Assembly: GCF_009208775.1 (NCBI RefSeq)
Contig: NZ_WFLM01000003.1
Span: forward strand, 69,374-101,373
Origin: Silvanigrella paludirubra
GTDB lineage: Bacteria > Bdellovibrionota_B > Oligoflexia > Silvanigrellales > Silvanigrellaceae
Reading direction: 5' to 3'
Length of the DNA stretch: 32,000 bases
Positions 14,624-20,835 of this stretch are shown piece by piece. Within the stretch, counting starts at the first letter, position 1, and each line of letters begins with the position of its first letter. The translations under genes and the position numbers were made by a program. The notes below the pieces were generated by a model. The model did not search any database. It worked only from the letters and a program-made list of their open reading frames with translations, and had not been told where the DNA came from.

Positions 14624-15850
14624 TTAACTAGGAACGCTTTCTCCTTCATTATAATCAAGTGAAGCATAATTTGTTTCTTTTAATGTTAATAATGCAATTG
14701 TTCCTAGTATTAAAAAAATACCAGCTGAAATAACCAAACCAATCCACTTTTCATTAAATTGTAAAGACATCCAAGGAACAAAAGCATTCATAATTATAAT
14801 AGAGCATCTTGCTAAATTAGAAATAATAGAAGATGCAATATTTCTTTGGTTTGTTCCAAAACTTTCAACAGCAAAAACCATAAGTAATCCAGAATATCCA
14901 CTTGCAAGACCTATTAAAAATAAAATGGAATAATATACTTCTATAGATACCAAAGAGCCTAAAGAAAATAAACAAATAGATAAGAACATAATTAATAATG
15001 CACTAAAAATAGATTTTTTTCTACTATAAGTTAATTTTGCAATAAATGGAAAAAAATAAGACCCAATAAATGAACCTACAAAATAAACACCTAAAGAAAA
15101 CCCTTGACTAATGGCAGTTTTAATTCCAACAGATTTAGCAATTTCAGGTGCAAAATTTACAAAAAATGCCATAAACCAAAAAGGAACAATTGCTAATAAA
15201 AGAGCAACAACTCTAGCAAAAGAATTTTTATTAAATATTAATAATTTTATACTGCCTCTAACAACATGACTTTGATATTTCATATTTTGATAAATAATAG
15301 AATCTGCAACTGAAATTCGGACAAAAAGCAAAATTAATCCAGCCAATCCACCTACAATAAATAAAACTTGCCAATTAAAATAACTACCTATAAATGCTGC
15401 AAGCATACCACCAACAACACCGGATGAATAAATGATACCAGATGCTTTTGCTCTTTTATCGGCTGGTAATAATTCACTCAATAATGTAATGGAAGCCGCA
15501 AATTCACCCGCTAATCCAACGGCAGCTAAAAATCTCATTAAAGCAAACATGGGAACTGTAGTAACAAATGCATTCAAAATAATACAAACAGAATATAATA
15601 AAATACCTGCTCTAACGGCAGACATTCTTCCAAATTTATCACCCCAAATCCCACTTAAAATTCCACCCACAACAACACCAACCGCTTGAGCATTAAACAT
15701 GAGTGAGCTTACACTTATAAAATCTTCTTGGGGCACTCCTAACGCTTGCAATGCAGGTGTTCTTACTACGGCAAAAATTGTTAAATCAAAAAAATCAATC
15801 ATATACCCTATAGCTAAAATAAATATTATAAATTTTGGATTATTTTTCAT
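14624..15850 (-). CDS. MFS transporter
   Basis: 408 aa with ~12 predicted hydrophobic helices and the MFS loop 2-3 motif GDKFGRMSAVRAG. It lies 13 nt downstream of menE on the same strand. Confidence 0.85.
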   Translation of the reverse strand: MKNNPKFIIFILAIGYMIDFFDLTIFAVVRTPALQALGVPQEDFISVSSLMFNAQAVGVVVGGILSGIWGDKFGRMSAVRAGILLYSVCIILNAFVTTVPMFALMRFLAAVGLAGEFAASITLLSELLPADKRAKASGIIYSSGVVGGMLAAFIGSYFNWQVLFIVGGLAGLILLFVRISVADSIIYQNMKYQSHVVRGSIKLLIFNKNSFARVVALLLAIVPFWFMAFFVNFAPEIAKSVGIKTAISQGFSLGVYFVGSFIGSYFFPFIAKLTYSRKKSIFSALLIMFLSICLFSLGSLVSIEVYYSILFLIGLASGYSGLLMVFAVESFGTNQRNIASSIISNLARCSIIIMNAFVPWMSLQFNEKWIGLVISAGIFLILGTIALLTLKETNYASLDYNEGESVPS

Positions 15851-15863
15851 TCAATTTACCTTA

Positions 15864-17045
15864 TTATAATTGATGATTATTTTTTGAAAGATCACATATT
15901 AATTGATTACGCTTTAGTTTACCAAGTTCAGTCCTCGGAATTTTATCTATAAAATAAATATTTTTTATTTTCTCAAAAGGAAAAACTCTTTTATTAAATT
16001 CATTTTTAATTTGGTCAAATAATTTACTAGATTTTATATTATCTTTTGTAAAAACAAGTGAAATTTTATTTTCCAATCGTTCATCTTTTTCATAAATAAC
16101 TGCAGCATCATCATTATATTCAAGTTCTGTTTTTAAATCTAATAAAATATGATCTAATCTAGATAAAGAAACATTCTCACCTGAAACTTTAATAACATCA
16201 TCACTTCTTCCATAAATTTGAAGAAATGAATCCTTAATATTACCAATATCTGAAGTAATTAAATACTTATCTGATTCATTTGAAATATGAGTTTTAACAT
16301 CTAAAAATTGAGTTTCATTATTTTTTAAAATTATGTATCCAGTTAATAAAGAAGAACCTGAAATACTTAAATTTCCATATTCATTTTTTTTAACATTTAA
16401 ATGATCTAAAATTTTTAATTCTGGATAGGTTGTTTCCCATTTAAAATTTATAGCAGCAGTTGCAATTTGAGAAGCACATTCCGTCATTCCATAGCTTGGT
16501 AATAAAGGCCAATTTAATTTTTTTGCTTTGTCATATAAAGATTTTGATAAAGCACCACCACCAACCACAACGGCTCTAAGGGACGGAGGGGAAGTCAAAT
16601 TTTGATTGATTAAATCATAAATTTGTGTTGGAACTAAAGAAGCAATAGTTACTTTATTTTTAATAATTTCTTGTATGAAATAATTTGCATCCCATTTTAA
16701 AGAATCAGAATATACATTTATTAATTTTGCACCACTTAAATAAGACCTAGAATATAATGATAAGCCACCAATATGAAAATAGGGTAGGGCATTTAAAAGA
16801 ATATCATTTTTAGTACAATCTAAATGATTGTTAACTGATTTTGAAGAATTTAAAATCGCATTTTTACTCAAGGCTACAAATTTCATTTCACTTGAATTTA
16901 AAGCAGTTGAGCCTGATGTTGCTAAAATAATATGGGATTCAAGAGAATAATCTTTAATCACTTTATTCAAAGATAAATTATGTAATGGCAAGGCTTTAGG
17001 ATTTAAAAAAACATGGGATTCATTGGAAAGCCAATCTATTTTCAT
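15864..17045 (-). CDS. menE: o-succinylbenzoate-CoA ligase-like ANL adenylating enzyme (short form)
   Basis: ANL motifs YGMTECAS, ITSDIG, GRSDDVIKVSGENV and IPRTELGKLKR. The P-loop is atypical (TSGSTALNSS rather than TSGTTGxPK). The ATG at 17045 forms an ATGA overlap with the menC stop, with GGAG 10 nt upstream. The men assignment rests on operon context. Confidence 0.7.
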   Translation of the reverse strand: MKIDWLSNESHVFLNPKALPLHNLSLNKVIKDYSLESHIILATSGSTALNSSEMKFVALSKNAILNSSKSVNNHLDCTKNDILLNALPYFHIGGLSLYSRSYLSGAKLINVYSDSLKWDANYFIQEIIKNKVTIASLVPTQIYDLINQNLTSPPSLRAVVVGGGALSKSLYDKAKKLNWPLLPSYGMTECASQIATAAINFKWETTYPELKILDHLNVKKNEYGNLSISGSSLLTGYIILKNNETQFLDVKTHISNESDKYLITSDIGNIKDSFLQIYGRSDDVIKVSGENVSLSRLDHILLDLKTELEYNDDAAVIYEKDERLENKISLVFTKDNIKSSKLFDQIKNEFNKRVFPFEKIKNIYFIDKIPRTELGKLKRNQLICDLSKNNHQL

Positions 17046-18082
17046 ACAAGTCTTCTCCAACGTTCTTTGCTTAATAGTTTATCAAAACCAAATCCATATC
17101 CCTCATTAGAAGGTATTAATTTTGTATCTATAACTGAAAATGTCTCTGAATAACAATTATTTTCATATAAAGTATGTGTTAATAAACCGCACTCATTTAT
17201 TTTTTGCTTATTTTTTACGTAAAACAGAGAGGACTCATATAAAGCGCATAATTGCCCTAAAGGATGATCCATATAACTTGTAAAAAGAATATTCTTGCTC
17301 GTATTGGGATCGATGTTTTCTTCGGAAAAATATTGAATAGCAGGTTTTAATATTAAATAATCAAAGGATAATGAATTTATAAAATTGTTTTTTAATTCAT
17401 TATCTTTAATTCTATCTATTCCAAGTTTTATATTTGGATACTTTGTTTTAATATGTAGCCAATCATTTTCAGAAAATAAAATTGGATCTTCTAAAAAATC
17501 AATTAAATTTAAAAACTCACCAATCTCATTTAAAAAATAAAAAATTTTCTCAAAATCACAAGAATTATTAAAATCTAATCTTAGCTTTATATTTAATTTT
17601 TTTAAAATCTGAGAATTATTTTTAATAACTTGAGCTTCATTTTTTAAATTTAGGCCACATTTTATTTTAATTTTTAAAAATCCTTGCTCATTTAATTGTT
17701 CAATAAATTCGCTTGATAGCAAATTAACATCAGTACAAGTAAAATGATTTTTAGGTATAAATAATCCACTAAAAATATTTTGTTTTTTTGCTCGATATAA
17801 AGAATCTATGTAAGAAAAATAAATGCTCTTTTTTAAATGAATATTATATTCATTATTTTTTAAATTTAAAATTTGATCTTTCAAAGAAAAATCTCCAAGC
17901 TCTTCCCATGAAAAACAATCAGAATAGCCCTCACCAGTTTCTTTAAAATTTATTTTAAGTAAAAAACCCGGTCTGTGATTTGAAGATTTATATTTTGAAT
18001 TTAAACTATATTTTGGCTTTAAAGTATACTCTGCTATTTCAATATTTTGAATTTGTGATTGGATATTAAAAAATTTATTCAT
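17042..18082 (-). CDS. menC: o-succinylbenzoate synthase (enolase superfamily)
   Basis: Enolase-superfamily landmarks in order: KIKIKCG (KxK), KLRLDFN, IDFLEDP, LGIDR and LILKP. Sits in the men operon. Confidence 0.7.
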   Translation of the reverse strand: MNKFFNIQSQIQNIEIAEYTLKPKYSLNSKYKSSNHRPGFLLKINFKETGEGYSDCFSWEELGDFSLKDQILNLKNNEYNIHLKKSIYFSYIDSLYRAKKQNIFSGLFIPKNHFTCTDVNLLSSEFIEQLNEQGFLKIKIKCGLNLKNEAQVIKNNSQILKKLNIKLRLDFNNSCDFEKIFYFLNEIGEFLNLIDFLEDPILFSENDWLHIKTKYPNIKLGIDRIKDNELKNNFINSLSFDYLILKPAIQYFSEENIDPNTSKNILFTSYMDHPLGQLCALYESSLFYVKNKQKINECGLLTHTLYENNCYSETFSVIDTKLIPSNEGYGFGFDKLLSKERWRRLV

Positions 18083-18908
18083 TTGTATAAAATTTTATAT
18101 TCATCTTTTTAGATGATTCTATTTTAGAATTTATATCATATCTTTGTTCATAAAATTGCATTGAGCTGTCAGGTTTAATTCCAAATAATAAAGTTGAATT
18201 TGTACCATATTTTTCACTAGAAATAAACAAAGAGGATAAAAAAACCTCTTGTTCTGGCGGGACACCTGTATCTGGTAGATCAGAGATATCATAAGTTTTA
18301 TTGTTCATCATCTCAGTCTTAAAATAGATCCAATAATCATCAAACGTTTTTAATTTATTATCCTGATTATTAAAAAAGGCTGAAAACGTTTTTTTGGTAT
18401 TTTTAATTTTTGGCCAATTTGAATCTATTTTACCATTACTCAATCCAAAAATTTTTTTTGTATTATCACCTGTTTTAAATAATAATTTACTTTCATGATC
18501 TTTACTATGATAATAATAAATGCACTCACCATCTGAAAAAATTAAATTAAAATAATTATATTCATGGGCTATTTTTTTAAGACGATTTAAGTATGATTCT
18601 GCTGTATCACTTGAATTTAAAAAATCTAGAATAATATCACCTCTAGACTTTAAGTCTTCTTTATAAGATTTTAAATGGCGAATATTTGTTAATATAGCCC
18701 ATTTTGGATTGATTATATTTTGACAAGCAAACCAAGTGCCCTTTTTATATTCATCGCGAGGCGCAATAATATCATTGCCATAAAATTGCAAATCACGATC
18801 CCAACCATTAATATTGGAAGATTTTCTTTTTTTATATTCATCTCTATTAGAGATAATTACTATAGGAAAATCTTTTATTTGATTAATGAATAAAAACAAT
18901 GTGCACAA
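18075..18908 (-). CDS. NRDE-family protein (DUF833, TANGO2 homologue)
   Basis: TTG start followed directly by Cys (M-C-T-L-F). Eponymous motif VIISNRDEY at residues ~17-25. Length of 277 aa is typical of the family. It lies 6 nt after menA and overlaps menC by 8 nt. Confidence 0.8.
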   Translation of the reverse strand: MCTLFLFINQIKDFPIVIISNRDEYKKRKSSNINGWDRDLQFYGNDIIAPRDEYKKGTWFACQNIINPKWAILTNIRHLKSYKEDLKSRGDIILDFLNSSDTAESYLNRLKKIAHEYNYFNLIFSDGECIYYYHSKDHESKLLFKTGDNTKKIFGLSNGKIDSNWPKIKNTKKTFSAFFNNQDNKLKTFDDYWIYFKTEMMNNKTYDISDLPDTGVPPEQEVFLSSLFISSEKYGTNSTLLFGIKPDSSMQFYEQRYDINSKIESSKKMNIKFYTNE

Positions 18909-18914
18909 ATTAAA

Positions 18915-19829
18915 TTACCTTATAAAAAAGCCAATCCCCATTAAAAATCCAAATAAAATTTGAGTTAAGGCAGACATACCCAAATATTTATTAAATATTT
19001 GAGATGGTTCGTTATTTAGTATACTTATAATAATTTTAATTGCTAGAGGTAAAGTTAGCATTGGTAACAAACCTGCCCATATATTTCCGCTATAAACCCA
19101 ATAAATATTAAGCAAATAAGTAAATAAAAATAAAAGAACAATTTCAATTCTAGCAAATTTTTTTCCGAATCGAGCCGCCAATGTCATTTTACCAACTCGT
19201 TTATCACCTATATAATCTCTAAAATTATTAATAGAAATTAATACTGTTGCAAGTAAGCCTACTTGAAGACCAGCTATTATAGGAGCTGCAGTAATAAATC
19301 CAGTTTGTAAATAAAAAACACCAAGAACTGCCGTAAATCCAAAAAATAAAATAACAAATAATTCGCCTAAACCAACATAAGCTAAAGGATAAGGGCCGCC
19401 AGTATATAAATATCCAAATAATAAAGAAATAATTCCAATTATTATGATTGGAATTCCCCCATGAATAACGATTGGTATTGAAAAAAGAATGGCAATCAAA
19501 AAACTTAAAAATCCACCAAACATGACTTGTTTTGAATTTAAAAGACCACTTTGAGTTACTCTTTTAGGACCTAACCTATTTTCATCATCTGCTCCCTTTT
19601 TGAAATCAAGAGCGTCATTAATTAAATTGGTTCCAATTTGAATAAAAATAGAAGCAAGTAGGGCAAATATACTATATGCCCATGTTACTTTATTTTCTGT
19701 AGGGCGTAAAACAGAATATGCAACAGCAGTTGCAACAAAAATAGGGGTAAATGCGGCTGATAATGTTTTAGGTCTTGAAGCCAAAATCCAAGGAATTATT
19801 TTATTTGTTTTTTTTAGCGTGTTATCCAT
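18915..19829 (-). CDS. menA: 1,4-dihydroxy-2-naphthoate polyprenyltransferase (UbiA family)
   Basis: ASRPKTL N-terminal motif, NDALDFKKGADDENRLGP (first Asp-rich motif), second motif NNFRDYIGDKRVGK, and ~9 TM helices. Confidence 0.85.
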   Translation of the reverse strand: MDNTLKKTNKIIPWILASRPKTLSAAFTPIFVATAVAYSVLRPTENKVTWAYSIFALLASIFIQIGTNLINDALDFKKGADDENRLGPKRVTQSGLLNSKQVMFGGFLSFLIAILFSIPIVIHGGIPIIIIGIISLLFGYLYTGGPYPLAYVGLGELFVILFFGFTAVLGVFYLQTGFITAAPIIAGLQVGLLATVLISINNFRDYIGDKRVGKMTLAARFGKKFARIEIVLLFLFTYLLNIYWVYSGNIWAGLLPMLTLPLAIKIIISILNNEPSQIFNKYLGMSALTQILFGFLMGIGFFIR

Positions 19830-19835
19830 TTATCC

Positions 19836-20660
19836 TCACGGAAATCTATCGAATTTATTAAAATCGGGTTTTCTTTTTTCAATGAAGGCTTCTTTTCCTT
19901 CTTTTGCTTCTTCACTTAAGTAATAAAGAAGTGTTGCATTTCCAGCTAAATCAAGCAAACCAATTTGTCCATCACAATCTGCATTTAAGGAAGCTTTTAA
20001 ACAGCGTAATGCAAGTGGAGAATGCTCTAACATTTCTCGGCACCATTTTAATGTTTCTGCTTCAAGTTCATCTACAGGAACAACATGATTTACTAATCCC
20101 ATTTCTAAAGCTTGTGTTGCATTATATTGACGACATAAATACCAAATTTCTCTTGCTTTCTTTTGTCCTACAATTCTTGCTAAATAACTACTTCCAAGAC
20201 CACCATCAAATGAGCCTACTTTAGGTCCTGTTTGTCCAAACTTAGCATTATCTCCTGCAATCGTGAGATCACAAACAACATGTAGAACATGCCCCCCACC
20301 AATTGCATAGCCAGCAACCATAGCTACAACTGGCTTTGGCATAGACCTTATCGCTTTTTGGACGTCTAATATATTTAAACGTGGCAAACCATCTTGACCA
20401 ACATAACCACCATTTCCTCTTACTTTTTGATCGCCACCTGAACAAAATGCCTCTTTGCCTTCACCGGTTAATATAATGACACCGATTTTTGAATTATCTC
20501 TGCATATTTCAAAAGCCTGTAATAATTCTTTTACGGTTTCAGGACGAAATGCATTTCGTACATGAGGGCGGTTTATCGTTATTTTTGCTATACCATCTTC
20601 TGTTCTATCTAATTTAATATCTTGAAACTCATGCATTGTATTCCAAATATTTAAGCTCAT
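19836..20660 (-). CDS. menB: 1,4-dihydroxy-2-naphthoyl-CoA synthase
   Basis: Crotonase fold with MenB-specific blocks [44 protein letters not shown] and a C-terminal [14 protein letters not shown]. Start set at the ATG at 20660, preceded by AAGGAG; the track start at 20756 adds 32 unsupported residues. Confidence 0.95.
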
Positions 20661-20835
20661 AGTGGACTCCTTCATAAAGAGAATTGTAAGTATATCCATA
20701 CCATATTTGTATTTACTTATTTTCTGTTGAAAATTCAACAATTTTGATTCGACCAAAATATATTGAAAAAATATATTTTAAATATTTTTTTACTTGTCTG
20801 AAAACACTTAAGAAACATTATTTCAATTTTTTTAT

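Follow-up and report, generated by a model that had tools for sequence, protein, structure and literature searches.

A TANGO2/NRDE-family gene conserved in the menaquinone operon of Silvanigrella paludirubra and its relatives: a candidate DHNA-CoA thioesterase

The DNA stretch analysed here (the window) comprises 32,000 nucleotides (positions 69374-101373) of contig NZ_WFLM01000003.1 of Silvanigrella paludirubra and carries a gene of the TANGO2/NRDE family, located between menA and menC in a string of genes for menaquinone (men) biosynthesis. Our results demonstrate that in a monophyletic group of relatives this gene has kept its place beside men genes through three different gene orders, and that the residues of the putative active site of the family are retained in the encoded protein. 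The likeliest role of the protein, to which we assign a probability of roughly 35%, is that of a dedicated thioesterase for 1,4-dihydroxy-2-naphthoyl-coenzyme A (DHNA-CoA) that feeds the polyprenyltransferase MenA. Catalysis, the substrate, and the hand-over of 1,4-dihydroxy-2-naphthoate (DHNA) to MenA are points that we infer from genomic context, fold, and conservation. The TANGO2 family, its fold, and the hypothesis that it acts on acyl-CoA have already been published; new is the placement of a subclade within the men operon, robust to rearrangement. A full-text literature search found no paper tying TANGO2/NRDE proteins to menaquinone biosynthesis.

A preliminary description of this DNA, made from the sequence alone, had placed the gene in a menB-menA-X-menC-menE string and had proposed it as a candidate for a missing step of the pathway. 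The placement is borne out. The gap between menA and the TANGO2 gene measures 6 nt (18909-18914), the TANGO2 gene and menC overlap by 8 nt (18075-18082), and the protein matches PF05742 with an E-value of 6.4e-48 and 164.6 bits against a cut-off of 22.6, its residues 1-257 covering profile positions 1-255 of 257. It is the single PF05742 copy in a genome of 3.94 Mb, and the window is AT-rich. The reading of a TTG-encoded methionine followed by cysteine also holds: the N-terminus is M-C-T-L-F, and the TTG start is confirmed by homology, since 96% of the 57 homologues in the alignment have Cys2. The NRDE motif, which corresponds to residues 21-24 (N21-R22-D23-E24), is invariant across the alignment of these 57 sequences, and further conserved residues are R28, T74-N75, R89-G90, S157-N158, W165-P-K167, and Y234-G-T. 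The gene is under purifying selection, because pairwise ratios of nonsynonymous to synonymous substitution rates (dN/dS) in the clade lie between 0.11 and 0.24.

The AlphaFold2 model of the protein, made with 26 homologues (predicted local distance difference test, pLDDT, 95.4; predicted TM-score, pTM, 0.92), has the alpha-beta-beta-alpha four-layer fold seen in the human TANGO2 crystal structure. In a Foldseek search, the top matches were the human TANGO2 crystal structures 8sv7 and 9bwa (TM 0.80; E 5e-18 for 8sv7), followed by members of the cysteine N-terminal nucleophile (Cys-Ntn) group, namely CV2077, penicillin V acylase, acyl-CoA:isopenicillin N acyltransferase (IAT), bile salt hydrolases (BSH), and NAAA. 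The relationship was also detected by phmmer against the 8sv7 sequence (E 2.6e-11). In the alignments with 8sv7 and with the 57 sequences, residues C2, R22, D23, N75, N158, and K167 align with human C2, R26, D27, N75, N157, and K166, which form the putative catalytic set of TANGO2 (PMC13044924) and superpose on the corresponding residues of BSH, acid ceramidase, and NAAA. Human R32 and R88, the counterparts of R28 and R89, bind sulfate in one crystal structure (PMC13044924) and the CoA diphosphate according to docking (PMC12359130); in the loop of human K56, the alignment is ambiguous. The putative Cys-Ntn constellation, consisting of the N-terminal cysteine, an aspartate that would stabilise the alpha-amine, an asparagine oxyanion hole, and Arg/Lys residues, is therefore intact in the alignments. 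Loss of Met1 has been observed in human TANGO2. A cysteine at position 2 is compatible with the action of methionine aminopeptidase.

The nearest named homologues of the protein are found in Silvanigrella, Pigmentibacter, and Fluviispira, and there are uncultured metagenomic relatives as well. The gene is present in 8 of the 12 other genomes of the same GTDB genus, and in all 8 the order is menB-menA-TANGO2-menC-menE. The TANGO2 proteins of these genomes are 50-86% identical to the S. paludirubra copy, compared with 42-82% for MenC. The subclade spans identities of 40-100%, and every member with a readable context is men-linked, amounting to nine genomes of the genus, S. paludirubra included, and 11 metagenomic contigs (L121-L126, L151, L152, and contigs of P0018 and P0019).

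Three gene orders occur within this subclade: menA-TANGO2-menC-menE, menA-TANGO2-menE, and ubiE/menG-TANGO2. The first, canonical order is found in L123, L125, and L126, and the second, which has no menC, in L124, L121/L122, and L152. In L121 and L122, which represent one uncultured relative, a 536-residue open reading frame (ORF) without a Pfam match lies on the opposite strand between menB and menA (L121:702-2312, L122:3327-4937). On the P0019 contig, an unidentified partial ORF of 139 residues is followed by the TANGO2 gene and then by an AMP-binding (MenE-like) gene, and in L151, the most divergent member with 40% identity, a fragment encoding the C-terminus of MenA is followed by the TANGO2 gene and the beginning of menC. 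The third order is that of P0018, where, according to the gene table rather than the DNA, the TANGO2 gene lies 13 nt downstream of a gene for a UbiE/MenG-type methyltransferase.

In a maximum-likelihood tree, the men-linked TANGO2 sequences are monophyletic (ultrafast bootstrap/approximate likelihood-ratio test 100/99), with a long stem (1.34 substitutions per site), and the clade divides by arrangement into a menC-containing and a menC-less part. A search of 1.84 billion representative sequences with a profile built from the clade recovered only three clusters of this type (439, 407, and 311 bits), the next score being 199 bits. Co-location across divergent genomes and gene orders, as would be expected of a component of the men operon, is thus conserved within one monophyletic clade, and the linkage is old, robust to rearrangement, and of a single origin. 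The phylogenetic linkage that the preliminary description had suggested looking for was accordingly found across the subclade, and was not found beyond it, as described below.

The junction with menA is itself conserved. The layout ATA(A/G)GG-TAA at the end of menA, together with a TANGO2 start codon other than ATG (TTG or GTG), was found in all nine genomes of the genus that carry the gene, S. paludirubra included. ATG starts of TANGO2 were seen only in the menC-less subclade. The combination of TTG or GTG starts with a ribosome-binding site inside the end of menA suggests that translation of TANGO2 is coupled and probably sub-stoichiometric.

The classical menaquinone pathway contains a single step at which a thioester is hydrolysed, the conversion of DHNA-CoA to DHNA, and DHNA is the substrate of MenA. 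In different lineages this step is carried out by non-orthologous hotdog enzymes (MenI). In the role that we propose, Met1 would be removed to leave a free Cys2 thiol, which would attack the thioester of DHNA-CoA, the product of MenB; CoA would be released with formation of an acyl-enzyme, which water would resolve to free DHNA, and the latter would be passed to the membrane prenyltransferase MenA, encoded immediately upstream. As a dedicated analogue of MenI with a fold other than hotdog, the protein would work in addition to generic hotdog thioesterases and would not be indispensable. We rank this role first because the sole hydrolytic thioester step yields the substrate of MenA, because IAT offers a precedent, and because human TANGO2 binds acyl-CoA via its NRDE motif (PMC11867700) and hydrolysis of acyl-CoA by its Cys2 has been hypothesised from docking by Cooper et al. 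(PMC12359130). A slightly more tentative claim goes further: the clade would be a DHNA-CoA thioesterase with the Cys-Ntn fold, which would make it a third way of carrying out the MenI step, structurally unrelated to the others, and no TANGO2-family protein before it would have had its natural substrate defined.

Several observations weigh against this role; the pathway itself offers points on both sides, the lack of a MenI match being in favour. A census of the genome (Table 1) gave a MenF-like protein, MenD, a MenH candidate, MenC, MenE, MenB, MenA, and two UbiE/MenG-type methyltransferases, and MenI alone was left without an assigned gene, having no match above cut-off. MenH, which the preliminary description had named as the other missing step, is indeed not encoded in the window, but a full-length candidate elsewhere in the genome rules it out as a gap. 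Hotdog thioesterases of the 4HBT type number at least six in the genome, and three of these are of the YbgC/FadM type; none of six 4HBT hotdog proteins reaches the cut-off of a MenI model. The YbgC/FadM-type class includes the model of Staphylococcus MenI, and also the cyanobacterial Slr0204. One YbgC-type protein (C10:547881-548306) has orthologues both in a genome without TANGO2 (G011, 66% identity) and in one with it (G012, 55% identity). The preliminary description had suggested testing whether the absence of hotdog thioesterases tracks the presence of the NRDE protein; such a complementary distribution was not found within the genus, since YbgC/FadM-type proteins occur in both kinds of genome. 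The genome thus has no specific MenI, yet no metabolic gap can be demonstrated, because hotdog thioesterases are present and one YbgC-type protein is common to genomes with and without TANGO2. The TANGO2 protein itself has no NCBIfam match, and its predicted fold is of the Ntn and not of the hotdog type, so that it could only be a functional analogue of MenI and not a member of the MenI family.

Table 1 Features of the men operon in the window and menaquinone pathway genes elsewhere in the S. paludirubra genome. Locations without a contig label are positions in the window.
Feature	Location	Strand	Remarks
TANGO2/NRDE-family gene	18075..18908	minus	277 residues; TTG start; PF05742
menB, DHNA-CoA synthase	19836..20756	minus	NF005637 493 bits, TIGR01929 449 bits, both above cut-off
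menA, DHNA polyprenyltransferase	18915..19829	minus	304 residues; PF01040 UbiA; TIGR00751 162.9 bits against a cut-off of 102.15
menC, o-succinylbenzoate synthase, Bdellovibrio type	17042..18082	minus	PF22015 OSBS_N; top NCBIfam match NF047905, E 1e-51, below cut-off
menE, o-succinylbenzoate-CoA ligase, short form	15864..17060	minus	PF00501; top NCBIfam match TIGR01923, E 5e-45, below cut-off
Major facilitator superfamily (MFS) transporter, final cistron of the string	14624..15850	minus	PF07690
AAGG ribosome-binding site	18918..18921	minus	at the 3' end of menA, inside the gene; spacing to the TTG 9 nt; abuts the menA stop codon TAA (18915-18917)
MenF-like isochorismate synthase	C3:109976-111055		TIGR00543 162 bits, below the cut-off of 224.75
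MenD	C10:67727-69331		264 bits, above cut-off
MenH candidate	C18:381925-382653		full-length; top two matches are MenH models (164 and 148 bits, both below cut-off), next family 29 bits
UbiE/MenG-type methyltransferase 1	C27:95182-95850		TIGR01934 231 bits, above cut-off
UbiE/MenG-type methyltransferase 2	C18:404994-405665		TIGR01934 178 bits, above cut-off

A second group of unfavourable observations concerns TANGO2 genes outside the clade. We examined 80 such loci with up to 8 kb of flanking sequence on each side, a sample biased towards the deltaproteobacteria (Syntrophales, Desulfobacterales, Geobacteraceae) with some Bacilli, Bacteroidota, and others. None contained MenA, MenC, or a credible MenE; a lone MenB, 7 kb from the TANGO2 gene in a metagenome-assembled genome of Virgibacillus, was judged coincidental. 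Three further contigs (Flexistipes and two others) had no men genes nearby, so that none of 83 TANGO2 loci outside the clade adjoins men genes. In the phylum, a TANGO2 gene is present in 16 of 131 genomes. The flanks of four copies outside the clade were read (G015, G018, G019, and G036), and about 1.5 kb around them is free of men genes; in G084 menA and TANGO2 lie on separate contigs. Within the GTDB family, MenA is confined to this genus (12 of 12 genomes) and was found in none of seven other genera, three of which carry TANGO2. Given TANGO2 without MenA in these three related genera and the lack of linkage outside the clade, the general function of the TANGO2 family is not tied to the classical menaquinone pathway.

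Certain genes recur beside TANGO2 genes of the general family in Syntrophales and Desulfobacterales, at loci that are phylogenetically related and not independent; they encode a SIR2-type deacylase, a Nudix hydrolase, a histone deacetylase-like amidohydrolase, and a thiolase. In Flexistipes, the TANGO2 gene starts 4 nt after an aldehyde-dehydrogenase/LuxC-type gene. Such neighbourhoods may be called loosely acyl- or CoA-flavoured.

Operons without the gene form a third group of observations that tell against the proposed role, as TANGO2 is not present wherever the classical pathway is present. The four genomes of the genus that have no TANGO2 gene are the four smallest. In one of them, G003 (1.8 Mb, completeness 94%), the menB-menA-menC-menE operon is contiguous and menA overlaps menC, and the classical pathway can evidently be encoded without TANGO2; if the protein acts alongside generic hotdog enzymes, as we propose, this dispensability would be accounted for. 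Two of the smaller genomes of the genus have a men operon that looks damaged: G011 keeps the order menB-menA-menC-menE with one frameshift in menA (L039:6771-7639, G011:C1), for which an assembly error at a homopolymer might be responsible, and G010 has no menC, its truncated menA being joined directly by menE (L148:1-1448, G010:C217). In G001, an unrelated ORF comes after menA. Directly after menE, G003 carries a full-length gene for a TLC ATP/ADP transporter (L038:9377-10936, G003:C3; PF03219, E 2e-163), which, together with the small genome and the fast-evolving men genes, is suggestive of life as a host-associated energy parasite.

Two other families of the phylum, f4 and f8, have menC or a MenC-like ORF as the immediate successor of menA, the two genes often sharing 4 nt, and in several loci a menE-like gene comes after the MenC-like gene; three representatives of these MenC-like proteins were confirmed as MenC by NCBIfam. 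MenA is patchy in the phylum and, beyond this genus, occurs only in f4 (2 of 2 genomes) and f8 (22 of 22). Because menA stands directly before menC in these other families, the menA-menC junction is ancestral and TANGO2 a lineage-specific insertion, a further point that does not favour a dedicated pathway enzyme. An in-place displacement of a hotdog gene following menA was not found in the related families, where the slot holds menC or a MenC-like ORF and no thioesterase. The branches of G001 and G003 are long in the MenA tree bearing on gain or loss within the genus, and the inference of a gain rests on the menA-menC order of f4 and f8.

The interpretation given in the preliminary description is therefore partly supported. 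A candidate for a missing men step is favoured by the conserved linkage, the intact putative Cys-Ntn set, and the lack of a MenI above cut-off, and disfavoured by the fact that no gap can be shown. The outcome named there as fatal to the proposal, clear MenI- and MenH-type enzymes in the genome and no linkage in other taxa, was found by half.

To our knowledge, catalytic activity has been demonstrated for no TANGO2-family protein, and adjacency to menA and menG, which encode lipid-phase steps, and not to menB fits the handling of a lipid equally well. The main rival explanation is accordingly a non-catalytic lipid or quinone carrier, in which the TANGO2 pocket would hold a hydrophobic intermediate (polyprenyl diphosphate, demethylmenaquinone, or DHNA) and present it between MenA and MenG, a role that would parallel those of UbiJ and COQ9 in ubiquinone synthesis. 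The gene stands directly after menA or, in P0018, after a UbiE/MenG-type gene, and never beside menB alone. [quoted passage not shown] The full Cys-Ntn catalytic residue set, however, is invariant in the clade, although ligand binding by the human protein needs the same residues. The operons of G003 and of the phylum's other families encode no carrier of this kind. Such a chaperone is not known to be required by any menaquinone pathway, and on balance we regard this explanation as unlikely.

Somewhat less likely still is that the gene is an unrelated passenger, a resident TANGO2 with the general function of its family that landed in the men operon and was kept there for expression alone. A lineage-specific insertion into an ancestral menA-menC order would fit a passenger, as would the highly variable contexts across the wider family, the three sister genera with TANGO2 and no MenA, and the lack of the gene in the four smallest genomes of the genus. 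Against this stands a linkage that has outlasted divergence down to 40% identity and three operon rearrangements, including the loss of menC from the slot and a move to menG. In addition, stop and start codons overlap or nearly do so, and the clade has a long stem (1.34 substitutions per site), which suggests that the function changed when the gene was recruited.

The arguments from fold, active site, and CoA binding that we have used for a DHNA-CoA thioesterase apply in the same way to a hydrolase for another CoA thioester or by-product of the pathway, which would proofread o-succinylbenzoyl-CoA (OSB-CoA) or mis-made acyl-CoAs, or recover CoA, in parallel to the proofreading role of EntH relative to MenI. 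Such an enzyme would be in keeping with the overlap of TANGO2 with menE, a CoA ligase gene, in the subclade labelled A and with the frequent CoA- or acyl-related neighbours in the general family (thiolase, Nudix, SIR2, and LuxC-type reductase). The constant partner of the gene, however, is menA and not menE or menB, and by-products of this kind have no direct evidence in S. paludirubra, which makes this explanation improbable.

Heme trafficking like that of HtpA, co-expressed with menaquinone synthesis so that both respiratory cofactors are supplied together, is very improbable: Shewanella HtpA, of the same Pfam family, has been reported to bind heme and to raise the cytochrome c content (PMC10470608), but the attribution of a heme role to TANGO2 homologues is contested (PMC12782551), the interaction with heme was described as non-specific in a crystallographic study (PMC13044924), most homologues could not replace HtpA, and tight coupling to a biosynthetic operon would be unusual for a trafficking factor of another cofactor. 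The earlier statement that NRDE/DUF833 proteins have no established function in bacteria needs correction, as a heme role of HtpA has been published, although it is disputed (PMC10470608, PMC12782551). No cytochrome c maturation (ccm) genes were found near the TANGO2 locus.

Deficiency of TANGO2 is a severe metabolic disease in humans, and the biochemical function of the protein is unsettled, with heme trafficking, acyl-CoA binding, and the action of an unidentified hydrolase having been proposed. Two crystal-structure papers propose that human TANGO2 is a Cys-Ntn hydrolase and name no proven substrate. The placement in the men operon narrows the candidate substrates to a few obtainable CoA thioesters, chiefly DHNA-CoA and OSB-CoA, and offers simple genetic read-outs of function, such as menaquinone content and the complementation of an E. 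coli menI mutant. If the protein were a DHNA-CoA thioesterase, it would bring to three the non-orthologous types of enzyme for the step at which the classical pathway varies most, and it would support the idea that the TANGO2 family, the human protein included, uses Cys2 to cleave or transfer acyl-CoA thioesters. Because the clade stands on a long branch and the linkage is lineage-specific, the result may reflect neofunctionalisation and need not transfer to human TANGO2.

As to the remainder of the operon, the position of the MFS transporter gene after menE is kept in the relatives L123, L125, L126, and G011. The longest ORF of menB encodes 306 residues from a TTG codon, including about 36 additional N-terminal residues, and the family match begins at about residue 37; the true start is probably an internal methionine near residue 33 (MSLNIW...). 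A scan of the operon for promoters and terminators gave counts not above those of shuffled controls in this AT-rich DNA.

Among known systems, HtpA of Shewanella oneidensis (SO0126) belongs to the same Pfam family, and no other TANGO2 homologue from bacteria has been studied. It differs in its proposed role, the traffic of heme to the cytochrome c maturation system, and no link to menaquinone or men neighbourhood has been reported for it. Human TANGO2 (8sv7, 9bwa) shares with the S. paludirubra protein the Met-Cys, NRDE, T-N, S-N, and W-x-K motifs as well as the arginine residues for sulfate or the CoA diphosphate. Their identity is about 21%, and the Silvanigrella subclade has two insertions, clade-specific substitutions (for example, Gly50 to Pro), and its place in the men operon, whereas a feature of the human protein is its demonstrated binding of long-chain acyl-CoA.

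IAT (PDB 2x1d/2x1e) has the same Cys-Ntn fold (Foldseek probability 1.00, TMq 0.56) and illustrates that the N-terminal cysteine of an Ntn fold can react with an aromatic acyl-CoA thioester. Its identity to the S. paludirubra protein is 8-9%, its activation proceeds by an internal autoproteolytic cleavage, and its acyl acceptor is an amine, whereas here the cysteine follows Met1 and the proposed acceptor is water. [quoted passage not shown] Slr0204 was reportedly identified through the clustering of its gene with men genes, which is the same type of evidence that points to the TANGO2 protein of S. paludirubra.

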